This document shows positions 1 to 27,358 of a stretch of 32,000 nucleotides of DNA, one piece after another. The DNA comes from Candidatus Iainarchaeum sp. Lineage in GTDB: Archaea; Iainarchaeota; Iainarchaeia; Iainarchaeales; 0-14-0-20-34-12. The notes beneath the pieces are model-generated. The model saw only the letters and a program-made list of their open reading frames with translations, did not search any database and was not told the DNA's origin. Every line of letters starts with the position of its first letter. The stretch's first letter is position 1. The stretch spans positions 21,533 through 53,532 of the forward strand of contig JAUSKK010000008.1 of assembly GCA_030649345.1 (NCBI GenBank). The letters run 5' to 3'. The position numbers and the translations under genes are program-made.

Positions 1-861
1 AGACTGGATAGGCAATTCCAGGAACTGAATTTTTTCTTTGAGTCTTTTTTCCAGTTTTCTTTTTTTAATTTTATTTATTGAATCCAATTTGTTTCCAGTT
101 ACAATAATGATTTTTCCTTTTTGGTTTAATACTTTTGCAGTCACAGGAATTTCCAAAAATGGGTCTAAAATAATGCGTACTGGATTTCTTCCATTTTTGA
201 TTCTACAAGTCAGTCTTGGATTATCCTGGATAACTGTTTTGACTCCAACCAAAATTCCGTCTAAAGTATTCCGCAATTGATGAACAAATCTTTGTGTTTT
301 TTTCCCATTAATCCAGTGTTCTTTTTGTTCTTTGCTCCAAATCAGTCCATTGGCTGTCATTCCAATTTTTTGCACAATGTACGGTATTCTTGTTTGAATC
401 CATTTCAAATAAGCTTGGTTTATTTCTATGCATTCTTTTTCTAAAATATTTGTTTGAACTTGAATTCCAGCTTTTTTAAGCGCTTGAATTCCTTTTCCTT
501 TAACTTTGGGATTCAGGTCTTTCATTCCAATAACTACTTTCCGAATTCCAGAATTTACAATGGCCGGAACACTGGGAGGCGTTTTTTTTTCTTTTCCAGA
601 ATGAAAACAAGGTTACAAAGAAACATACAGTGTACTTCCTTTTGCTTTGTTTCCAGCTATTTTCAAAGCATTAATTTCTGCATGATTTTCTCCAAACTTT
701 TCATGAAAACCTTTTCCTACAATTTTCCCATTGTTGACAATTAAACAGCCGACCAATGGATTGGTTTGTGTTCTGCCTAAACCTTTCAGAGCTAAATTAA
801 TAGCTAATTTCATAATTTTTTCGTTTTGGTTCAAGAATGCCATATATGTCTCTAAAACCAA
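1..861 (-). pseudogene. ribD: RibD-like riboflavin-pathway deaminase/reductase; 3' end runs off the window; broken by an in-frame TAA at 613-615
   Basis: ORF 613-861 reads ...GFHEKFGENHAEINALKIAGNKAKGSTLYVSL then TAA. My back-translation shows the same frame stays open from 612 to 1. It continues PCFHSGKEKKTPPSVPAIVNSGIRKVVIGMKDLNPKVKGKGIQALKKAG...RFVHQLRNTLDGILVGVKTVIQDNPRLTCR..., i.e. an HAE...PC...C-type deaminase motif followed by a RibD reductase-like region. The second Zn-ligand Cys position is Ser (AGT, 571-573). Confidence 0.6.
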
Positions 862-930
862 CCTTAATTTAGTTTATTCCATTTTAAGGCCTTTTAGTGA
901 CCTTTTTAAACCCTGTGTTTTATTATTATT

Positions 931-989
931 TTAACCAATTGAGCTGATGCTTCGAAAGAAGCAAGCGTTTTGCTTTGCTCTTGGTTTAA
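931..989. other. Compact GC-enriched nested stem-loop element in the ribD/rps19e divergent spacer
   Basis: Outer stem TTAACCAA(931-938)/TTGGTTTAA(981-989). Inner closing stem GAGC(941-944)/GCTC(977-980). These enclose GCTTC-GAAA-GAAGC (949-962, GNRA-type loop) and AAGC-GTTTT-GCTT (963-975). Strand and function unknown. Confidence 0.3.
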
Positions 990-1009
990 GGAAATTAATT
1001 ATTAAATAG

Positions 1010-1609
1010 GTGAATTATTTGGCAATTGAAAATGTGCATCCCAGTGACTTGATTTCAGGTCTAGCAAATGATTTTGAAAAAAATTTAAAAATGCAAAAAC
1101 CAAATTTTGCAGACTACGTAAAAACCGGTGTTCATCGAGAACGAGCACCCACTCAAGAAAATTGGTATTATTTACGCTTGGGTTCTTTGTTGTATAGAAT
1201 TTACAAAGACGGCCCAGTTGGAGTTCAAAGTTTACGTTCCTATTACGGCGGCCGGCAAGCACGCGGTGTCAGACCTCACAGACACAGAAAAGCCAGCGGA
1301 AAAGTTATTCGTTTTTGTTTACAAGAATTAGAAAAAGTAGGATTTATTGAAAAGTTTGGAAAAAAAGGAAGAAAGCTCAGCAAAAAAGGCCAATCTTTTT
1401 TGTACCAGAAAGCCAAACAATTAACTGCACAAATGCCTGAAATTTTGGCAGCTAAAGAAGAAGCTAAAATTGCCCGTGTTAAAAAATTGGAAACAATTTC
1501 AAAACAAGCACCTAAAGAAGATGCTTCTAAACAATTTGCCAGAAAAGGAAAAAAAGACAAAAAAGATGAAAGTTCTGATTCCGAAAAAGGATCCAAGAAC
1601 AAAAAATAA
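1010..1609 (+). CDS. rps19e: 30S ribosomal protein S19e with a ~55 aa K/E/S-rich C-terminal tail
   Basis: Motifs: KTGVHRERAPTQENWYYLRLGSLLYRIYKDGPVGVQSLRSYYGG...RGVRPHRHRKASGKVIRFCLQELEKVGF. GTG start at 1010 overlaps AGGTGA; an in-frame TTG at 1019 is an alternative start. Confidence 0.9.
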   Translation: MNYLAIENVHPSDLISGLANDFEKNLKMQKPNFADYVKTGVHRERAPTQENWYYLRLGSLLYRIYKDGPVGVQSLRSYYGGRQARGVRPHRHRKASGKVIRFCLQELEKVGFIEKFGKKGRKLSKKGQSFLYQKAKQLTAQMPEILAAKEEAKIARVKKLETISKQAPKEDASKQFARKGKKDKKDESSDSEKGSKNKK

Positions 1610-1610
1610 G

Positions 1611-1639
1611 TTATCAGATGTAGTTTAAGGTTCTGATAA
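1611..1639 (+). promoter_or_regulatory. Hairpin TTATCAGA-N13-TCTGATAA in the rps19e / PDCD5-like spacer, with the AAGG ribosome-binding-like motif in its loop
   Basis: Perfect 8-bp inverted repeat, 1611-1618 and 1632-1639, ending 1 nt before the ATG at 1641. Confidence 0.3.
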
Positions 1640-1640
1640 T

Positions 1641-1967
1641 ATGGATGAAAATTTAGATTCATTAAGGCAGCAGCGCATGCAGCATTTGAAAAAAAATGCA
1701 GAAGACAAAAAAAGCCAGCAAGAGCAAGCAATGCAAGCTCAAATGCAAGTGAATGCTTTAATGATTCAGTATCTAGAGCCGGCAGCCAAAGAACGGTTGA
1801 ACAATGTAAAATTAATTAATTCAGAATTGTACGGAAAAGTTGTTCAAACTGTTTTGTATTTGGTGAAAAGCCAAAAATTGAATCGAAAAATAACGGATAT
1901 TGAATTAAAAAAATTATTAACTTTGGCCACAGGTCAAAAACGAGAAATTAAAATTGTAAGAAAATAA
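1641..1967 (+). CDS. PDCD5/TFAR19-type dsDNA-binding protein (archaeal MTH1615-like)
   Basis: Motif ...IQYLEPAAKERLNNVKLINSELYGKVVQTVLYLVKSQKLNRKITDIELKKLL..., and the conserved position between rps19e and rpl39e. Confidence 0.8.
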   Translation: MDENLDSLRQQRMQHLKKNAEDKKSQQEQAMQAQMQVNALMIQYLEPAAKERLNNVKLINSELYGKVVQTVLYLVKSQKLNRKITDIELKKLLTLATGQKREIKIVRK

Positions 1968-2048
1968 ATCAGTAGTGCTGAATGAAATGAAGCACTACGT
2001 TCGACCAACCGGAACCCCGGTTGAGAAGTTAAAATTGTAAGAAAATAA
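1941..2048 (+). repeat. 27-nt direct repeat (1941-1967 and 2022-2048, 25/27 identical) duplicating the last 8 codons + TAA of the PDCD5-like gene around a 54-nt two-hairpin insert
   Basis: CGAGAAATTAAAATTGTAAGAAAATAA versus TGAGAAGTTAAAATTGTAAGAAAATAA. Insert hairpins are GTAGTGC(1972-1978)/GCACTAC(1992-1998) and CAACCGG(2006-2012)-AACC-CCGGTTG(2017-2023). Confidence 0.85.
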
Positions 2049-2068
2049 AAAAATATTGAGGAATCATA

Positions 2069-2356
2069 ATGGCAAGACATAAAACACAAGAATTCAAACA
2101 ATTTGCAATTGCAAAACGCAGAAGTGTCGGAAGTACTTTAAGTGCTGCTCCAGTTTGGACTTTTCAGAAAGCAAATCGCAGATTGTTTTCAAAGACCAGC
2201 AAGCGTACTTGGAAACAAATAGGTATTGGGAAGTTATTTGACGAACAACAACATACTAAAGAAACCCAAGCCATCAAGCATATGAAGCGTTCTTTTTTAG
2301 TCAAAAAAAGAGCACGATTAAATAAGAAAATAAAATCAAAAAAGAAAACAAATTAA
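2069..2356 (+). CDS. rpl39e: 50S ribosomal protein L39e, divergent, with a ~45 aa basic C-terminal extension
   Basis: MARHK...AKRR...APVW...KANRR...SKRTWK fits the L39e pattern MAR.K..AK...PVW..K.NRR...KR.W. Conserved operon position. Confidence 0.7.
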   Translation: MARHKTQEFKQFAIAKRRSVGSTLSAAPVWTFQKANRRLFSKTSKRTWKQIGIGKLFDEQQHTKETQAIKHMKRSFLVKKRARLNKKIKSKKKTN

Positions 2357-2374
2357 AATATGGGATGACTATTT

Positions 2375-2815
2375 ATGGTTGAAATTCGAGAATTTACAGT
2401 GGATTTAAAGAAAAGATACAAACAACCCAAGCCTGGCAGAGCCAATAAAAGTATCAATGCCATTCGCTTAAAGGTAAGCAAAGCTTTGCATGTTCCTTTA
2501 GATACTGTGAAATTATCCAATACTGTAAACGAAGCTATTTGGGAACACGGGCGAACCAAGCCTCCGCATAGAATTAAATTAACTTTAAAACAAGACACCG
2601 ATCGAGTGGACGTATTTTTATTCAGTGAATTTGAAGAAGTTAAAAAATTAGTTTCTGAAGAAAAAAAGAAAAAAGAATCCAAGAAAACTGAACCTAAAAA
2701 AGAAAAAACAGAAAAAGTTGAACCTGAAACAGAAGCAGGTGTTGCTGAAGCAGTAAAACAAAAACAGAAAAAAGAAATTGAAGAAGCTGCTCAAAGCATG
2801 GATCATAAACATTAA
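2375..2815 (+). CDS. rpl31e: 50S ribosomal protein L31e with a ~55 aa K/E-rich C-terminal tail
   Basis: EFTVDLKKRYKQPKPGRANKSINAIRLKVSKALHV..VKLSNTVNEAIWEHGRTKPPHRIKL, plus synteny. Confidence 0.85.
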   Translation: MVEIREFTVDLKKRYKQPKPGRANKSINAIRLKVSKALHVPLDTVKLSNTVNEAIWEHGRTKPPHRIKLTLKQDTDRVDVFLFSEFEEVKKLVSEEKKKKESKKTEPKKEKTEKVEPETEAGVAEAVKQKQKKEIEEAAQSMDHKH

Positions 2816-2833
2816 TGAATTCTTTTGAATTCA
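2816..2833 (+). terminator. Perfect hairpin TGAATTC-TTTT-GAATTCA immediately after the rpl31e stop
   Basis: 7-bp stem at 2816-2822 / 2827-2833. Its role in termination is inferred only. Confidence 0.35.
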
Positions 2834-2848
2834 TAATTAGGTAATCCA

Positions 2849-3508
2849 ATGAAATTTACTAAACAATATTTGAATTCCAGCCCCTACATTGGCGTATTTG
2901 CAGTTACCAGTGAAACGATTTCTTTATTTCCTGCTTTTATTACAAAAAAACAAAAACTTTATTTTCAAGACATTTTGGGAACAGAAATTATTCAAGGAAC
3001 TTTAGCAGGATCGCATTTATTGGGTGTGTTTGCTGTTGGATCGCAAAACAAGTTTTTAGTTTCCAATCTAATTTCAGACAAAGAATTGGATTTTTATAAA
3101 AATCAAGGATTGAAATTAGAAGTCTTAAGTGATAATTTGGCAGTTGGAAATTTAATTGCTTTAAATGATTTTGGAGCAGTTTGTAGTCCTATTTTTTCCA
3201 AAGAAGACATCGCAAAGATTAAATCTTTTTTGGGCACAGAAGTTGTTACTTCTTTGGTTGGAAATCATGATCTAACCGGGGCCAGTTGCAAGGCAACCAA
3301 TGTTGGATTTATTGTAAGTCCTATGGTTACAGAACAAGAATTTAGTGTTTTGCAGAAAACATTAAAGGTAGACGGAATGCGAACCACAGCCAATTACGGT
3401 GATAGATATGTAGGCAATGGATTAATTGCCAATTCAAAAGGCGCAGTGATTGGTGTTCCAACCACAACCCATGAAATGATTCGCATAGATGAAGCATTCA
3501 GAAAATAG
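2849..3508 (+). CDS. eif6: Translation initiation factor 6 (aIF6)
   Basis: 219 aa, NSSPYIGVFAVTSE..., repeated pentein-like segments, conserved position after rpl31e. Confidence 0.9.
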   Translation: MKFTKQYLNSSPYIGVFAVTSETISLFPAFITKKQKLYFQDILGTEIIQGTLAGSHLLGVFAVGSQNKFLVSNLISDKELDFYKNQGLKLEVLSDNLAVGNLIALNDFGAVCSPIFSKEDIAKIKSFLGTEVVTSLVGNHDLTGASCKATNVGFIVSPMVTEQEFSVLQKTLKVDGMRTTANYGDRYVGNGLIANSKGAVIGVPTTTHEMIRIDEAFRK

Positions 3509-3624
3509 GAATGAAATTTGAAGAGATGTACCACAAAATTTTAAATTTTGCGTATATACAAAATCGATGATTTTGTAGTACATCGAAACCGTAGGTTTGG
3601 ATAGACGAGGCATTCAGAAAATAA
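3485..3624 (+). repeat. 24-nt direct repeat (3485-3508 and 3601-3624, 21/24 identical) duplicating the last 7 codons + stop of eif6 around a structured insert
   Basis: ATAGATGAAGCATTCAGAAAATAG versus ATAGACGAGGCATTCAGAAAATAA. The insert carries a long imperfect hairpin, GATGTACCACAAAAT(3525-3539)/ATTTTGTAGTACATC(3570-3584), with inner stem ATTTTG(3545-3550)/CAAAAT(3559-3564). It also carries AAACC-GTA-GGTTT (3586-3598). Confidence 0.85.
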
Positions 3625-3659
3625 GAATAATTGAAACTAATATTTGAAAGGTGAAATGT

Positions 3660-3857
3660 ATGATGAAAAAATTTGAAATGAAAGGATCTTATAAAGAAAA
3701 AAAATCTTGGAAGAAATTTACTAGAACTGTAGAAGCTGTAAGTGAAAAACGAGCCCGAGAATTATTGCAAAGCTTATTAGGTTCAGAACACCAAGTAGTC
3801 AAGCATCATCTTAAAATTGATTCATTGCAAGAAGCTCAAGAAAAAACCGGTGAATAA
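3660..3857 (+). CDS. rplX: 50S ribosomal protein LX (L18Ae/eL20 family)
   Basis: KKFEMKGSYKEKKSWKKFTRTVEAVSEKRARELLQSLLGSEHQVVKHHLKIDSLQE fits the LX pattern F.v.G...F.k.v.A..e..A.E...s.lGS.H......I.I. AGGTGA at 3648-3653 lies 6 nt before the ATG at 3660. Confidence 0.75.
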   Translation: MMKKFEMKGSYKEKKSWKKFTRTVEAVSEKRARELLQSLLGSEHQVVKHHLKIDSLQEAQEKTGE

Positions 3858-4322
3858 ATGTCTAAATTAAGATCTGAGTCTAAATCATTGACTGCTCAGC
3901 AAGTTATGGAACTGCATTCCATGACTCGAAATCGATTGGAAGGCGTTCAACAACAATTGGGAACATTTAATTCGTTTTTGCAGGATTTAGTGAATGCCAA
4001 AGCATCCATTGAACAATTAGAACAAGCAACTTCAACAGACCCAGTAATGTTTTCTTTGAGTGCCGGTGTTTTTGTTTCAGCTAACTTGGATAAAAAGCCC
4101 AAATTTTTGATTACAATTGGAGACGAAATTTATCATGCAACTACTCCAGAAAATGCTAAACAAAAATTGGATGCAAGAAAAGAAGATTTATTGAAAGCCA
4201 TTGCATCCATGCAATTGGATCAAGAAAAATTAATCAAAAATTTACAAGACATGGAATCCATGCTAAATCAAGCTCGCCGAAAAGCACAACTTCATCCGGA
4301 AACTACTCCGGCTGTAAGTTAA
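3858..4322 (+). CDS. pfdA: Prefoldin alpha subunit
   Basis: 154 aa with coiled-coil / beta-hairpin / coiled-coil layout, and the conserved position between rplX and ftsY. Confidence 0.8.
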   Translation: MSKLRSESKSLTAQQVMELHSMTRNRLEGVQQQLGTFNSFLQDLVNAKASIEQLEQATSTDPVMFSLSAGVFVSANLDKKPKFLITIGDEIYHATTPENAKQKLDARKEDLLKAIASMQLDQEKLIKNLQDMESMLNQARRKAQLHPETTPAVS

Positions 4323-4331
4323 TTGATTTCA

Positions 4332-5369
4332 ATGTTTGATGTTTTAAAGCAAAAATTAAATGATTTTTCAAAAAAACTCAAAACTACTTTATCTCGCGAA
4401 CCCGAATCTTTTCCTCAAGAATCTAAACCTGCGTTACCTGAATCTAAACTAATTTCATCAGAAGAACCCAAGCGAGTATTGAAAGCAGAAATTTCTGCCA
4501 TTTCTAAAGTCAAACATGTTTTTTCTTCTAAAGTAAAACTTTCTGAAAAAGACTTAGAAGACTTATTGTTTGATTTAGAATTATCTTTGTTGGAGGCAGA
4601 CGTAGCTCATTCCACCAGCCAAGCTATTTGTTCTAGCATTAAAGAAAAACTTTTATCTATGGAATTTGATAAATCAAATTTAGATTCAGCTATTCAAAAA
4701 GAAATTCGCTCTGTTTTGATTTCTTCGATTTCCATTCCTTCGTTTTCTTTGTTTGATAAAGTCAAACAGTCTTCCAAAAAACCGTTTACCATTTTATTGT
4801 TGGGGCCCAATGGAGCTGGGAAAACTACTACGATTGCCAAGCTTTCGCATTATTTTTTAGAACATAACCTTAAAATTGTTTTAGCTGCAGCCGATACTTT
4901 TCGTGCTGCTTCCATTGAACAATTGGCTGAACATGCTCAACGTTTAAAAGTTCGAATGATTGCTCACACGTATGGATCAGATCCTGCTGCTGTGGCTTTT
5001 GATGCAGTGCGTTCAGCTGAAGCTGGGCACATAGATGTAGTGTTAATTGATTCTGCTGGAAGACAAGAAACGAATACTAATTTAATGCAAGAATTAAAGA
5101 AAATGGTCCGCGTAGTTAAACCTGATTTGAAAATTTTTATCGGCGAATCTTTGGCTGGTCATGCTTTATTGGATCAAGCATTGGAATATCATGAACAATT
5201 GTCTTTGGATGGATTTATTTTAACTAAATTAGATACAGACACTAAAGGTGGCACTATCATTAGTTTATTGCATGAAATCAAGAAACCTGTTTTGTTTTTA
5301 GGTATTGGTCAAAAATATTCTGATTTAATTGAATTTAATTTAGATTATATTTTAGAAAAAATTATCTAG
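4332..5369 (+). CDS. ftsY: Signal recognition particle receptor FtsY
   Basis: LLLGPNGAGKTTTIAKL, AAADTFRAASIEQL, LIDSAGRQ, ILTKLDTDTKGG. The ORF track starts at TTG 4323; the ATG at 4332 is preferred. Confidence 0.95.
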   Translation: MFDVLKQKLNDFSKKLKTTLSREPESFPQESKPALPESKLISSEEPKRVLKAEISAISKVKHVFSSKVKLSEKDLEDLLFDLELSLLEADVAHSTSQAICSSIKEKLLSMEFDKSNLDSAIQKEIRSVLISSISIPSFSLFDKVKQSSKKPFTILLLGPNGAGKTTTIAKLSHYFLEHNLKIVLAAADTFRAASIEQLAEHAQRLKVRMIAHTYGSDPAAVAFDAVRSAEAGHIDVVLIDSAGRQETNTNLMQELKKMVRVVKPDLKIFIGESLAGHALLDQALEYHEQLSLDGFILTKLDTDTKGGTIISLLHEIKKPVLFLGIGQKYSDLIEFNLDYILEKII

Positions 5370-6003
5370 CATTCAATCCGCGTTCTACGGCTGCATGAAT
5401 TAGAGTCATATGATGGGTAATTAAATCCCGGTCTAATTGCATGCGTACTTGTTCATTGAGCCAATGATTAAATACTGCAATATTGGCTTGACAAATGTCT
5501 TTTACATACGGAAAAATACTATCCCATGCTTCATTTACTTTATCTTTTCGTAAAGCTTGAGTGTGAATTTCATCTAAATCTCTTAAAAAATATTCTGCTT
5601 CTTTTTGCACTTTAAGTACTCCATCATGTTTTGCAATTTTAATGGCTTGTTGTACTACGCTTCTTACGTCGGCAAAACTTTTTCGTTCTCCGCTTAACAC
5701 TGCTATATTTAGGTCTTGCATTTGAAGATGCCGTGCAATTTCATTTCGTTGGCTTTTTTTAACATGGAGTCCTGCAACTAATTTTCCTAAAACTTTGGCT
5801 TTTACTAAATCATGAATAACATCTGCTGGAACTTTTCCTTTCAATTGTTTGCTTAAACGCAAAGCTTCGCGTACAAATTCTGTTGTAGTAAATTTTCGGT
5901 TAACGATTTCAGATTTTCTTCTCCGCTCATTTAATCGAACCCGCAATCCGGGTTTTCTCAAGCGTTTAATTGTTCGAACCATTGCTGGTTTTCGCATGCT
6001 CAT
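5362..6003 (-). CDS. Basic-N-terminus helical protein, paralog family member A (unknown function)
   Basis: MSMRKPAMVRTIKRLRKPGLRVRLNERRRK..., 213 aa. TATA-like CATATAAA upstream, no SD. Overlaps the ftsY 3' end by 8 nt (convergent). Confidence 0.7.
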   Translation of the reverse strand: MSMRKPAMVRTIKRLRKPGLRVRLNERRRKSEIVNRKFTTTEFVREALRLSKQLKGKVPADVIHDLVKAKVLGKLVAGLHVKKSQRNEIARHLQMQDLNIAVLSGERKSFADVRSVVQQAIKIAKHDGVLKVQKEAEYFLRDLDEIHTQALRKDKVNEAWDSIFPYVKDICQANIAVFNHWLNEQVRMQLDRDLITHHMTLIHAAVERGLNAR

Positions 6004-6085: not shown

Positions 6086-7045
6086 ATGCAAAAACCAATT
6101 CGCAAACCTTCTAAAGGAAAAATGGCTCCAAGATTGGAACGAAAAGCTCGTGGAGCTTATACGCCAACTCAACCTCGTTTATTGGAAAATCGCTGGGCTG
6201 TAAATATTGGGACTGAAAGTAAGCCTAGGCTGAAAAGCAGATTGGATAGTCTTTTACGAAATCCAAAAAAAAGAATTGCTGAACGAAAATACTTTGCTGC
6301 TCGGTTGGATGCAGACCTTGAAGTTTTACATGCTTTTAATTCATCGGGTGAACGCAGAAAACCTTTGAATGAAACACTGAAAAGATTAACTGAAGTTTTT
6401 ACTGCTGAAGCAAGTCCGCATGCAGATGTGTATAGTGTTGGTAGAGAAATTCTTAATATTAAATTTAATGCATGGCTTCCACGCATTCTTAATTTAGCCG
6501 ATACTGTTATGGTTCACGGAACTCGAGAAGAACAAGCAAGTCAGTCTGCATTATTTGATGCTGTAATCAAATATATTTCCAGTCCTCCTGGAAAAGAACT
6601 TGAATTGAGTCATAGTAAGTCTATGCGAATGAAGAAAAAAAGAGAGGAAAGACCTGAAGTTTATGCAAAAGCAAAACAACTCAGAAAAGAAACTAAAAAA
6701 GAACAAAAACGCAGAAACTCTGAAAGGAAAGTGCGTTCAATTGTTTTTTTGAAGAAAACTTTTTTTGATTCACTTCAAGGCGGATTAAGAGAACTTGCTA
6801 AAGCACAAGAAAGACTAAAAGACAAAGCGTCTCCAATGAATCCTAATCTTACTAGGTTATATCATTGGCTGCTTCGAAGTCAAATTGATCTTATTTTTGA
6901 AAGAATTGACGAATTTAAAGCTACTCCAGTATTTCGGGGTATTTCAGTAGACGAACGCAGGCAAATTTCCGATACTGTGCATGCCTGCAATCTGGTTTTA
7001 CTAGAGTACTCTTTGAAATTGATTCGCAAGCCTCCAACAAAATAA
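6086..7045 (+). CDS. Basic-N-terminus helical protein, tentative paralog family member B (unknown function)
   Basis: MQKPIRKPSKGKMAPRLERKARG..., 319 aa, with a central K/R/E-rich segment. TTTAAATATT box about 10 nt upstream of the ATG. Divergent from member A. Confidence 0.65.
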   Translation: MQKPIRKPSKGKMAPRLERKARGAYTPTQPRLLENRWAVNIGTESKPRLKSRLDSLLRNPKKRIAERKYFAARLDADLEVLHAFNSSGERRKPLNETLKRLTEVFTAEASPHADVYSVGREILNIKFNAWLPRILNLADTVMVHGTREEQASQSALFDAVIKYISSPPGKELELSHSKSMRMKKKREERPEVYAKAKQLRKETKKEQKRRNSERKVRSIVFLKKTFFDSLQGGLRELAKAQERLKDKASPMNPNLTRLYHWLLRSQIDLIFERIDEFKATPVFRGISVDERRQISDTVHACNLVLLEYSLKLIRKPPTK

Positions 7046-13159: not shown

Positions 13160-13256
13160 AATCCTGTGGCTTAATTAATTGTTTTGTCTTTTATTTTTGT
13201 ATGGATTTAAATTTTGATGCAAAATTTAAAATTTTAAAATTTCAGGAGAAATTTTA

Positions 13257-13598: not shown

Positions 13599-14981
13599 CT
13601 AATAAGATTTTTTTTTGTGCAAATTAAGATGTTCTGTGCGTTCAATTTCTTTCAAATTACTCGGATCGTTGTTGTATTTGTTACCATCAATGTGATGTAT
13701 ATCGTAACCCACTTTTGGCCAACGTCCATGCGCATTTTTCCAGATCCATCTATGGACTGAAGTCTTCTTATCATAATCTTTTAGATCCAATCCCTCTTTA
13801 TAAAAATAATAATAGCCGCCCCAATAAGGATTTACAATAACCAATCTGTTACCTACAAGTTCATACGGAAAGGGTTTGTTCACCCGTTCCCATTCACTAC
13901 TCATATAATTTGCAAGTTTGTATGTTTTAATTTCAAATTTAGCTTTCAGATCGTCAAGCTTTTTTAATTCACTTTCTTTCTTATTATTTTTTTCCCTTAA
14001 AATACTAATTTCATCATCCATTTTTTCAATTTCATACTTTTGTTTTTGTATCTCTGCAGATATTAGTTTTTGTTTTTCAATTAGATTTTTTCTTTTACTA
14101 TATTCAATTGAATGATAACCAATTATCGAAATAACTATTATTATCACTAAGGCAATTATCAAGAATTGCAAGTTATCAAAAAAAATTTTATTATCTTTGT
14201 CCATTTGTAATTTCGTTCTCGCCTCAAGTATTGTTTGAGTTTCTATGCACAAGCCATTGGCATCAATAGCGCCATAAATACACTCTTGTTCACTGCAAAT
14301 TGGTTTGAAACCAATCTCAACACTCTTTTTTTTCACACATAAATTATTGTTGCATGAAACTTCGTCAGTTTTGCAAGTAAATCCTGGAAAAAACTCATTT
14401 TTATTATTGCAAATATTTTCAATACAAAATCCCCCTCCACACTCAGTGCCAATTGTGCAGGTGGCTCCATCATTTAGGCAATTTTTATCTAAGCAAGTTT
14501 TGCAGTTGTCTGTGGTGATTATTTCTTTTTCAGTTTTAAGATATGTAAAATCGTTTTCTAAAATAGTGTATTCTATTGATTCTTGGTTTATTCGAGGGGA
14601 GCTGCCAATACTTTCCCATTCATCTGTTACAACAGATCCGCCTGCTGGAACGTCAAAAACATGACCTGCCTTGTTGCCAACCCGGTTATTCCAATAATAT
14701 GAAATGTCTAATTTTATCGGAGTAATGTAACTATTGTAAATTGTGAATCCAGTGTGGTCGTTTCTAATATAAAAGTCACCAAAACGTATGGGCGTTTTGG
14801 TTATATAGTTATCAGTTATATTTTTGACGAAAATAACTTCATTGTTTTCCTTATTAAATAGTTTTTGTGCATATATTTCTCTTTGTGTTTGGGTAGTGTA
14901 TTGGCAAGCCAATGTCTGCGCTGAAACTATCGGCAAAGATAAAATAACAATCAGTGCTAAAAAAAGAATTTTGATTCGCAT
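13599..14981 (-). CDS. Single-pass membrane protein: signal peptide, Cys-rich ectodomain, TM, coiled coil, C-terminal HNH nuclease domain
   Basis: MRIKILFLALIVILSLPIVSAQ signal. 13 Cys between aa 159-245. TM FLIIALVIIIVISIIGYH (aa 272-289, nt 14115-14168), then KRK. Heptad-like K/E segment. HRWIWKNAHGRWPKVGYDIHHIDGNKYNNDPSNLKEIERTEHLNLH (aa 410-455, nt 13617-13754) matches the HNH_3-type pattern. Confidence 0.75.
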   Translation of the reverse strand: MRIKILFLALIVILSLPIVSAQTLACQYTTQTQREIYAQKLFNKENNEVIFVKNITDNYITKTPIRFGDFYIRNDHTGFTIYNSYITPIKLDISYYWNNRVGNKAGHVFDVPAGGSVVTDEWESIGSSPRINQESIEYTILENDFTYLKTEKEIITTDNCKTCLDKNCLNDGATCTIGTECGGGFCIENICNNKNEFFPGFTCKTDEVSCNNNLCVKKKSVEIGFKPICSEQECIYGAIDANGLCIETQTILEARTKLQMDKDNKIFFDNLQFLIIALVIIIVISIIGYHSIEYSKRKNLIEKQKLISAEIQKQKYEIEKMDDEISILREKNNKKESELKKLDDLKAKFEIKTYKLANYMSSEWERVNKPFPYELVGNRLVIVNPYWGGYYYFYKEGLDLKDYDKKTSVHRWIWKNAHGRWPKVGYDIHHIDGNKYNNDPSNLKEIERTEHLNLHKKKSY

Positions 14982-15037: not shown

Positions 15038-15195
15038 TGCAGCCATCGGGATTCGAACCCGAGTCGCAACCTCTCGCCAAACGAACATAAACGTGAAGAA
15101 GCCGGTCGATCGAGCGTTAGCGAAGATCGTCCTAAAGCGTCAACCGATTTTGCGGTTGTGGAAGGGTCGCATCCTGACCACTAGACTATGGCTGC
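15038..15195 (-). tRNA. tRNA-Gly(UCC) with an 86-nt intron at the canonical 37/38 position (intron 15073-15158)
   Basis: Hand fold: GCAGCCA/TGGCTGC acceptor, GTCT..GGAT D arm, CGACC/GGTTG anticodon stem, loop CTTCCA|A, TCGGG-TTCGAAT-CCCGA T arm, discriminator A. 37 + 86 + 35 nt. Confidence 0.85.
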
Positions 15196-25254: not shown

Positions 25255-25377
25255 AACCGTAACCCAGTTGACGTGTTGTGGTGCGATTACACCTTGAGTG
25301 TAATGCACATTAAAACGTGTTCGTTTTAATTGTGCTTTCGTTACACTTCAGCACCACTGCCTTGATAGGTTGATTTT

Positions 25378-26350: not shown

Positions 26351-27358
26351 TTAGATTGCAGTTTTTGCAATTGTGGCTTTTTGAGAAATGCAGGTGTGTT
26401 CTAATGGCATGAAACGACCTTGCCAAGGTCGAAGTCCGGGTCCGATTCCCGGCTCCTGCAAATACTTCTCAAAATTAATTTCTGCGTAATGAATGTCTTT
26501 GTGTCTTGGTACAATTCCTGTTTCTTTGTAAACTTGATATTTGTATAGGTGCTTTGGGTTATTGGGTTTTATTTTTTGAAAGAATTTGTCAATTTCGTTT
26601 CTGTCTAGAATCCAAATTTGTTCTTTTCCAATTTTTGCGTTAAATCCTAAATCTAAAAACATATTCCAAACTTCTTTCAAAAACACTGGATCGTGTGAGG
26701 TTATTTCAATTTGCGCGCTGTGTGTATGATGTCTGTGAAACCCACCGTCTGTGTCAAATAGTCCTCGCAGAAATGCTTTTTTGTATTCAGCTTGTTCATA
26801 AACTTGTTTTGGAATGTGCATTCTTCCTTTTTTATATCCAACCGGAATGCTAAATTCAAAAGCTAAATATTGATGTGCTTTTTTGGATGACAGATTGCAA
26901 TGCACTACATTTCGCTGGTATCGAAACCAAGGTTCTGCTTGAAACAAGTTTTTCATTAATTGTTTTACATGAGATTCAATATAGATTTTGTCTGAAACTA
27001 TTCCTTCTGAAATAATGATTCCATAATTCTCTGTTGTCAAACATCCATCTCCATATACTATTCCAAGGAATTCCGCTAGTTGTTCGGACATTGCAGGTAA
27101 GCTTACTTCATGTGTTCTAAACTTTAAAGTAACAAATTTTAATTTGTTTAAATTAACTGTAATATTTGCTTTTTGTATCAATTTTAATAAATTATTTTGA
27201 GGGATTTTTATAGTTCCTGAGTTATAAAACAAAACTGTTGATCGATTTACTTCTAAGAATTCAGATATTTGAGTCCAAGTCATTCCAATGTTTTGCTTTA
27301 TAGTTTGCAATAGTTTGTGTTGTTCTTCTTTTCCAATATTCAAATATGAGTTATCCAT
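26351..27358 (-). CDS. Free-standing double-motif LAGLIDADG endonuclease-like protein with an N-terminal HTH
   Basis: LAEFLGIVYGDGCL and AFLRGLFDTDGGF motifs. N-terminal TWTQISEFLEVNRSTV HTH-like segment. The last ~36 codons run antisense through the tRNA-like sequence at 26390-26460. Confidence 0.8.
   Translation of the reverse strand: MDNSYLNIGKEEQHKLLQTIKQNIGMTWTQISEFLEVNRSTVLFYNSGTIKIPQNNLLKLIQKANITVNLNKLKFVTLKFRTHEVSLPAMSEQLAEFLGIVYGDGCLTTENYGIIISEGIVSDKIYIESHVKQLMKNLFQAEPWFRYQRNVVHCNLSSKKAHQYLAFEFSIPVGYKKGRMHIPKQVYEQAEYKKAFLRGLFDTDGGFHRHHTHSAQIEITSHDPVFLKEVWNMFLDLGFNAKIGKEQIWILDRNEIDKFFQKIKPNNPKHLYKYQVYKETGIVPRHKDIHYAEINFEKYLQEPGIGPGLRPWQGRFMPLEHTCISQKATIAKTAI
26390..26460 (+). tRNA. 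tRNA-Gly(GCC)-like sequence (possibly functional, possibly degenerate)
   Basis: Hand fold: GCAGGTG/CTCCTGC acceptor (one U6-U67 mismatch), CGACC-TTGCCAA-GGTCG anticodon arm, CCGGG-TCCGATT-CCCGG T arm (C at position 55 instead of U), 3-bp D stem. Confidence 0.55.

Follow-up and report, generated by a model that had tools for sequence, protein, structure and literature searches.

The DNA analyzed here is a window of 32 kb from the metagenome-assembled genome (MAG) of one DPANN archaeon, Candidatus Iainarchaeum sp. (contig JAUSKK010000008.1). The genome is tiny, and the G+C content of the window is 34%. Two genes in this window, encoding eIF6 and a PDCD5-like double-stranded DNA (dsDNA)-binding protein, are each followed by a second copy of their own 3' end, and in both cases a short hairpin-forming insert separates the two copies. 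Both cases sit within one conserved archaeal ribosomal-protein operon. The repeats are referred to below as repeat A (PDCD5-like gene) and repeat B (eIF6 gene), with a proximal and a distal copy each, and the sequences between the copies are referred to as inserts A and B.

Structure of the repeats and inserts

The end of the eIF6 gene, ATAGATGAAGCATTCAGAAAATAG (3485-3508), which includes its last 7 codons and the stop codon, reappears as ATAGACGAGGCATTCAGAAAATAA at positions 3601-3624, with an offset of 116 nt. Including the adjoining GAAT, the core of repeat B comprises 28 nt (3485-3512 and 3601-3628), of which 25 are identical; automated repeat finding delimits it as 33 nt at 85% identity. 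Local alignment of the last 60 nt of eIF6 with the downstream sequence gave a score of 36, compared with a mean of 14.9 and a maximum of 30 in shuffled sequences (n = 1000). The three differences between the proximal and the distal copy (T/C, A/G, and G/A) are transitions in every case and fall in the third codon position, and both copies spell IDEAFRK*; the eIF6 homologues have the common C terminus HEMIRIDEAFR[KR]. The distal copy is out of frame with eIF6 (116 mod 3 = 2) and is preceded, in its own frame, by a TAG at 3592-3594.

Similarly, the final 27 nt of the PDCD5-like gene (1942-1968) reappear at 2023-2049 with a spacing of 81 nt and 26 identical positions, and the alignment score of the last 60 nt of this gene with the sequence downstream of it exceeded those of all 1000 shuffles. 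The sole difference in repeat A (ATT versus GTT) is in the first codon position and is non-synonymous, Ile versus Val. The preliminary description of this DNA, made from the sequence alone, had reported the duplication of the eIF6 gene end, its three silent differences, the out-of-frame distal copy with a TAG upstream of it, and the long and short hairpins between the copies, all of which were borne out in sequence and position. It had also noticed the same hairpin layout after the PDCD5-like gene; the hairpins are indeed present there, and they too are flanked by a duplicated gene end. The parts of both structures are as follows.

1942-1968 (+): repeat A, proximal copy; the 7 final codons of the PDCD5-like gene with its stop codon, plus flanking bases
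1969-2022 (+): insert A; 54 nt, about half G+C by manual count
1972-1998 (+): hairpin 1 of insert A; perfect 8-bp stem GTAGTGCT/AGCACTAC with an 11-nt loop
2006-2023 (+): hairpin 2 of insert A, CAACCGG-AACC-CCGGTTG; perfect stem with the AACCG-loop-GGTT motif; abuts the distal copy
2023-2049 (+): repeat A, distal copy; non-coding, with 26/27 positions identical (ATT to GTT); 20 nt before the next start codon
3485-3512 (+): repeat B, proximal copy; the 7 final codons of the eIF6 gene with its stop codon, plus GAAT
3513-3600 (+): insert B; 88 nt, 33% G+C
3525-3584: long hairpin of insert B; imperfect, with arms of 26 nt (81% complementary) and an 8-nt loop
3586-3598 (+): short hairpin of insert B, AAACC-GTA-GGTTT; contains the AACCG-loop-GGTT motif (3587-3597); 2 nt before the distal copy
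3601-3628 (+): distal copy of repeat B; 25/28 identical; non-coding and frameless; in the leader of the LX gene, 35 nt before its start codon

The entire window was scanned for direct repeats in which 20 or more of 24 bases match and the copies are 30 to 400 nt apart. Only repeat A, repeat B, and one weaker pair within the prefoldin gene were recovered; in 20 shuffles of the window, the same scan found essentially none (1, 0, 0, and so on). The weaker pair, 3984-4009 and 4185-4210 (+) in the prefoldin alpha gene, has 20 of 24 matches in its best window, and its copies are 201 nt apart; it probably reflects the two coiled-coil arms of the protein or chance. Repeats A and B lie 1.6 kb apart and have near-equal lengths (27 and 28 nt), and in both of them the identity falls sharply at the borders of the repeat.

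Both inserts fold far beyond their shuffles, with z-scores from -4.2 to -7.05. The predicted folding energy is -23.3 kcal/mol for insert A (z = -5.65) and -22.0 kcal/mol for the plus strand of insert B (z = -4.15, equaled by none of the 200 shuffles); the minus strand of insert B folds more strongly, at -26.8 kcal/mol (z = -7.05). The layout is common to the two inserts: a long hairpin is followed by a short AACCG-loop-GGTT hairpin located at the distal copy or within 3 nt of it. The loop of hairpin 1 in insert A has GA at both of its borders, which, judged by eye, suggests a K-loop-like pattern. The long hairpin of insert B holds a TATA-like palindrome, AAAATTTTAAATTTT, and insert B also contains a GAAGAG-ATG mini-open reading frame (mini-ORF), the ATG of which lies within the stem. 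An antisense ORF of 59 aa that spans insert B had no Pfam match, and scans for bacterial-type promoters and terminators were uninformative.

An exact 17-mer, AAAATTTTAAATTTTGC, is common to the long hairpin of insert B and the intergenic positions 13219-13235. In the latter place, it is a part of the palindrome TTTAAATTTTG-ATG-CAAAATTTAAA (13206-13235), located upstream of a PQ-loop gene, and this palindrome may be a TATA-like promoter element, judging from its sequence.

The short hairpin is a member of a small family of motifs that are dispersed in this genome. The pattern AACCG-N1-10-GGTT has 9 matches (6 loci) in the window, compared with 1.09 expected, and the longer form AACCG-N3-8-GTTGA has 3, compared with 0.25 expected, a count that was reached in none of 100 shuffles. 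The latter sites are located in insert A (2007-2024, +), at the 5' edge of the intron of a tRNA-Gly gene (15140-15157, -), and at the 3' end of a tRNA-Val gene (25255-25271, +); the copies in insert A and at tRNA-Val are identical in ~15 of 18 positions, as counted by eye. All three of these copies are found in non-coding transcribed sequence; a short form of the motif is located in insert B, at 3587-3597 (+). In ~340 kb of other archaeal loci, AACCG-N3-8-GTTGA occurred once, within a coding region. Another sequence that is common to both inserts, GAATGAAAT, is not enriched. In searches against Rfam 15, only tRNAs scored above the gathering threshold in the window, and nothing relevant was found at E values of up to 5 in the region 1900-3700.

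The genes around the two structures are listed below.

1010-1609: S19e gene
1641-1967 (+): PDCD5-like dsDNA-binding protein gene; 108 aa, complete, stop codon TAA; identified as an ORF and by Pfam entry PF01984
2069-2356 (+): gene for a small basic protein at the L39e position; next cistron after the PDCD5-like gene
2375-2815: L31e gene
2849-3508 (+): eIF6 gene; 219 aa, complete, with its own TAG stop codon; identified as an ORF and by the Pfam eIF-6 match of the identical gene call in contig L001
3660-3857 (+): LX/L18Ae ribosomal protein gene; next cistron after eIF6; Pfam Ribosomal_L18A in L001, L18Ae in the NCBI naming
3858-4322: prefoldin alpha gene
4323-5369: FtsY gene

The 95-aa product of the gene at the L39e position (2069-2356, +) has no Pfam match, and a search of 5.8 billion proteins yielded only 2 homologues, with 78% and 70% identity. 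Two further ORFs, located between ftsY and the SRP54 gene, encode basic proteins of 213 aa (5362-6003, -) and 319 aa (6086-7045, +), likewise with no Pfam match.

Several features of the window are linked to tRNA genes. The tRNA-Gly(UCC) gene (15038-15195, -), which was found by Rfam and missed by ARAGORN, contains an intron of ~87 nt in the anticodon loop; a suspected internal duplication in this intron-bearing gene was not significant. Directly adjoining it is an ORF for a 460-aa protein with a C-terminal HNH_3 endonuclease domain (13602-14981, -). A strongly folded stretch of ~100 nt (25268-25365, +; z = -3.2, equaled by none of 200 shuffles) lies directly 3' of tRNA-Val and shows no Rfam match and no plausible gene. 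An ORF for a 335-aa LAGLIDADG_3 homing-endonuclease-like protein (26351-27358, -) overlaps, on the opposite strand, the gene for tRNA-Gly(GCC) (26389-26461, +).

Assembly and related loci

The duplications are real DNA and not an assembly artefact. A Logan contig from sequencing run SRR13727527 is 100% identical to positions 659-5463 of the window (4.8 kb), both structures included. Logan contigs are assembled with k = 31 from k-mers seen at least 2 times, and each 31-mer is unique within the contig set (PMC12424806). As read from the sequence, the longest identical run between the copies is 14 nt for eIF6 and 21 nt for PDCD5; since both are below k = 31, the copies cannot branch or misjoin the Logan graph. 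The MAG and the Logan contig may share the same reads, in which case they are not independent data.

For comparison, related eIF6 loci were collected from one GTDB genome, several Logan and ENA contigs, and 71 metagenome contigs of JGI. In most of ~65 related loci, the distance from the eIF6 stop codon to the next gene is between -8 and +27 nt; the two largest apparent gaps are due to an LX gene that was missed by the ORF rule. None of the related loci has insert B, and the repeat scan described above, when applied to ~350 kb of related loci, found in-frame coding repeats and low-complexity tails only and no gene-end duplicate. The comparison of eIF6 3' ends that the preliminary description had suggested thus returned relatives with neither the insert nor the duplicated gene end, and the duplicated, insert-bearing state is derived and lineage specific. 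One relative (L004), with an eIF6 that is 50% identical, has a gap of 117 nt with no significant duplicate. The relative with the nearest eIF6 (P0002, 73% identical) has a 173-nt gap 3' of its PDCD5-like gene; its contig ends 71 nt past eIF6. A Logan contig of the same organism (L007), the closest relative with available DNA, covers the PDCD5 junction and is considered below.

Two other contigs deserve mention. An ENA contig with a coverage of 1.04 (L008) carries, at positions ~965-1140, a piece of ~170 nt that is ~90% identical to positions 3727-3900 of the window (the 3' end of LX and the start of prefoldin) and is surrounded by unrelated genes; it is probably chimeric. In a third relative (P0033), represented by a 1249-nt contig of ENA ERZ27297570, the gene at the L39e position lies 43 nt downstream of a partial gene (196 aa) with no family assignment, so that the PDCD5-like gene may be absent from that locus.

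Origin of the inserts

This doubled structural oddity of a single DPANN genome, real and statistically solid, is best read as the scars of two separate insertions of small hairpin DNA at cistron boundaries, each with an unusually long target duplication of 27 to 28 bp. We give this reading a probability of roughly 45%. In each case, a short hairpin-forming DNA (54 and 88 nt, respectively) would have been joined into the chromosome across a staggered break of ~27 to 28 bp, and the target stretch would thereby have been copied on either side of the insert as a long target-site duplication. By chance, that stretch would have held the last codons and the stop codon of the upstream gene. The proximal copy would still end the gene, and the distal copy would be a relic without coding function inside the downstream gene's leader; because the target duplication included the gene end, both genes would have survived the insertion. 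What argues for such a history is that the core repeat has the same length in both events, that identity ends sharply at its edges, that the inserts are structured and unrelated to their flanks (strict local alignment found no significant similarity of either insert to its flanking sequence), and that they share the terminal hairpin. The inserts would be transcribed as intercistronic stem-loops, with nothing spliced, and may stabilize the transcript or insulate translation between the cistrons. Given that the long hairpin of insert B shares a 17-mer with the TATA-like palindrome upstream of another gene, this insert could carry promoter-like sequence and may include an internal promoter.

A number of observations weigh against this interpretation. 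To our knowledge, a target duplication of 27 to 28 bp is a property of no characterized archaeal transposon. The feature is carried by one genome only, the 32-kb window contains no second full copy of either insert, and the two inserts, compared as wholes, show no significant similarity to each other or to the tRNA intron. Terminal inverted repeats are absent (insert A begins with TCAGTAG and ends with CCCCGGTT, insert B begins with GAAATTTG and ends with GGTTTGG); the inverted repeats detected in both inserts are the internal hairpins only. The two reconstructed empty target sites are no more alike than other junctions (P = 0.06 to 0.17), and none of the ~30 predicted proteins of the window that were scanned has a Pfam match to a transposase, integrase, cas protein, Y1 transposase, or reverse transcriptase. 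In the closest relative, the PDCD5 junction (L007, 263-435) is a 173-nt AT-rich spacer; it contains 33-nt tandem repeats similar to the region of the spacer and start codon and no G+C-rich hairpins. Finally, anchored alignments of each insert with the sequence after the distal copy were better than those of shuffled sequences (P = 0.033 for insert B and 0.010/0.006 for insert A), and the true partner of insert B scored at the top of 21 post-stop regions (27, compared with a maximum of 25 for the others). Similarity that continues past the repeats would fit a decayed tandem duplication.

Such a duplication is the main rival of the insertion reading, although we consider it unlikely. It would have spanned ~81 to 116 nt, reaching from the end of the upstream gene across the spacer into the start of the downstream gene; the outer copies would have remained functional, and the inner relic of the downstream gene start would have been reshaped into hairpins, for example, by template-switch events that buried the duplicated ribosome-binding site and ATG. 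The anchored alignments, which beat shuffles marginally, are consistent with this scenario, as is a collinear alignment of insert B that extends over the Shine-Dalgarno sequence and ATG of LX and into its first codons (P = 0.002 to 0.035; the alignment is permissive and the result marginal). The GAAGAG-ATG mini-ORF with its ATG in the stem could be what is retained of such a gene start. The 33-nt tandem repeats of L007 point in the same direction, along with a degenerate copy of its own gene end and spacer, for which a test on the reconstructed junction gave a modest P value of 0.006; direct tests for a relic gene-end copy in that junction were not significant (P = 0.12 to 0.4). The PDCD5 junction is thus unstable within the clade, but the inserts found in the window belong to it alone.

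However, neutral decay should proceed at an equal rate inside and outside the repeats, whereas the identity is 89 to 96% within them and ~55%, with many gaps, just outside. The lack of significance in the strict insert-flank alignments also speaks against a tandem origin, as do the score of the true partner of insert A, which is 11 compared with a maximum of 18 for unrelated post-stop regions, and the composition of this insert, which, within an AT-rich spacer, is about half G+C and has two perfect G+C-rich stems. The similarity past the stop codons that had been pointed out initially is weak: it is marginal with respect to shuffles and, for PDCD5, no better than that of unrelated post-stop regions. 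A tandem duplication also leaves unexplained the AACCG-loop-GGTT hairpin beside both distal copies and its recurrence at tRNA sites.

It is improbable that the repeats resulted from recombination with foreign DNA bearing its own gene end, either at an attachment site (Campbell type) or through homology-facilitated illegitimate recombination, so that one copy would be native and the other derived from a related strain. Integrative elements typically leave direct repeats that contain a gene 3' end as their signature, and the differences between the copies are few, all transitions, and silent in 3 of 4 cases, as between orthologous gene ends. Furthermore, the GAG codon of the distal copy is rare here (15 GAG versus 206 GAA; the stop codons TAA and TAG number 10 and 2, respectively). 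On the other hand, the "element" would be only 54 to 88 nt long and have no recombinase, no integrase is encoded in the window, and the event must have happened twice, at two different gene ends of one operon. Searches with the inserts against IMG/VR and phage and plasmid sequences returned no match, save for one chance-level 34-nt match in Shewanella. An invading element with its own gene end had been proposed in the preliminary description; an insertion that left two gene-end copies is retained in the reading preferred here, and relatives lack the insert, whereas nothing demands that the gene end itself was imported.

The silent pattern, moreover, is statistically uncompelling. If the changes were unconstrained, the probability that all three eIF6 differences are silent would be 0.005 for any change and 0.025 for transitions only. 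However, only silent changes are open to the functional, proximal copy; if the silent fraction s is 0.18 to 0.33, the chance that a given difference is silent becomes 2s/(1+s), or ~0.3 to 0.5. By our arithmetic, this constrained model yields P values of ~0.03 to 0.125 for 3 silent differences out of 3 and ~0.09 to 0.31 for 3 out of 4 when PDCD5 is included, so that the pattern is not significant. Another way to read the eIF6 changes is as three GC-to-AT transitions, 2 in the functional copy and 1 in the relic, and this direction fits a genome with 34% G+C, which means that no coding selection on the frameless copy is needed. The earlier suggestion that both copies are or were under coding selection is thus not upheld: the distal copy has no start codon or open frame, an in-frame TAG lies just upstream of it, and repeat A carries an Ile/Val change.

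Still less probable is an element acting at the RNA level, in which the insert and one repeat would constitute an intron, of the bulge-helix-bulge (BHB) or another type, or a self-cleaving RNA, and the body of the gene would be joined to the distal copy. The strong structure of the inserts is compatible with this idea, and so are the three silent differences of eIF6 and the presence of an AACCG-loop-GGTT hairpin directly 3' of the 5' splice site of the tRNA-Gly intron. However, a script that looked around both inserts for the BHB motif (a 4-bp helix between two 3-nt bulges, with a further helix at each end) detected no arrangement with an excised length of 116 or 81 nt; its hits were weak, 2 to 5 bp long, and of the kind expected by chance. 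The same strict search also missed the tRNA-Gly intron of the window and hence does not bear on relaxed motifs. Rfam offered no intron or ribozyme even at E values of up to 5, and repeat A contains a non-synonymous change. In addition, the eIF6 and PDCD5-like genes have their own stop codons, so that splicing to the distal copy, another early suggestion that found no backing in these searches, would leave the proteins unchanged.

Least credible of all is an artefact of assembly, with the gene ends of two strains' alleles joined into one contig: the differences do resemble allelic silent variation, and the MAG and the Logan contig may come from one run, but two different assemblers agree completely over 4.8 kb, every Logan 31-mer is unique, no more than 14 and 21 bases in a row are identical, unique structured sequence separates the copies, and the architecture is seen twice.

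Comparison with known systems and biological meaning

The inserts resemble MITEs (miniature inverted-repeat transposable elements) and the repetitive extragenic palindromic (REP) sequences and bacterial interspersed mosaic elements (BIMEs) in that they are 50 to 100 nt long, non-coding, hairpin-forming, lineage specific, and located after a stop codon between the genes of an operon. A short palindromic motif recurs here at several non-coding sites (3 versus 0.25 expected). Unlike MITEs and REPs, the inserts have no terminal inverted repeats and cannot be aligned as wholes, and no transposase or REP-associated tyrosine transposase (RAYT)-like protein was seen among the ~30 scanned proteins of the window. 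Target duplications of MITEs are 2 to 10 bp long and REPs have none, compared with 27 to 28 bp here. With respect to copy number, only the terminal hairpin motif of 11 to 18 nt recurs in the 32 kb, and a second full copy does not. A literature search for MITEs in DPANN archaea returned nothing relevant.

Integration by enzymes of the Cas1 family, which is responsible for CRISPR spacer uptake and for casposons, similarly inserts a short DNA and duplicates a target of set length on both sides of it, as would be the case here with 27 and 28 nt, a likeness that is not defining by itself. About 28 bp is within the length range of CRISPR repeats, while casposon target duplications are ~14 to 15 bp. 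Unlike CRISPR spacers of 30 to 45 nt, the inserts are 54 and 88 nt long and highly palindromic; their targets are gene ends without significant common sequence, and the window has no array or leader and, among the ~30 proteins scanned, no cas protein. Unlike casposons, the inserts are non-coding and have neither terminal inverted repeats nor a polymerase.

Integrative elements at the 3' ends of tRNA and protein genes are likewise flanked by direct repeats that include the gene end, with the gene left intact and the copies slightly different. However, such elements are kilobases in length and encode an integrase, in contrast to the 54 to 88 non-coding nucleotides found here. The BHB introns of archaea, known in tRNA, rRNA, and the cbf5 mRNA of Crenarchaeota, are also small structured intervening sequences, and the inserts share a hairpin motif with the tRNA-Gly intron of the same genome; unlike these introns, which have no exon duplication, the inserts follow a stop codon and show no correctly spaced BHB motif. 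Diversity-generating retroelements, which are common in DPANN archaea, also feature a gene 3' end that is repeated shortly downstream with a hairpin in between. In contrast to them, the repeats here are 27 to 28 nt rather than at least 60 nt, housekeeping genes are the targets, and the ~30 scanned proteins of the window include no reverse transcriptase. Of the 3 eIF6 differences, only 1 affects an adenine in the presumed template, which is the distal copy, so that the changes are not adenine specific.

A bolder proposal, which we regard as doubtful, is that the inserts belong to a previously undescribed class of tiny hairpin elements that have no terminal inverted repeats, consist of a long variable hairpin and a conserved AACCG-loop-GGTT hairpin, and insert at the 3' borders of genes and of tRNA exons, where they duplicate ~27 to 28 bp as if by a ruler. 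If true, this would imply an unknown integrase or a Cas1-like activity on non-CRISPR targets, and it might tie the inserts to the origin of the long tRNA introns in these archaea.

If the structures are merely the product of a decayed tandem duplication, they represent an ordinary mutational scar. Under either interpretation, silent differences in a duplicated gene end provide no argument for splicing or for a second copy that is coding, since the functional copy changes only silently. If they are footprints of insertion, even the very compact genomes of DPANN archaea would still acquire small pieces of structured DNA at the junctions within operons, and they would do so with a stagger of ~27 to 28 bp that is known for the duplication of CRISPR repeats but not for archaeal transposons. 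The duplication would then explain how tightly packed and probably translationally coupled genes survived the event, and the occurrence of one motif in insert A, a tRNA intron, and a tRNA trailer suggests that non-coding inserts in this genome may have a common source.

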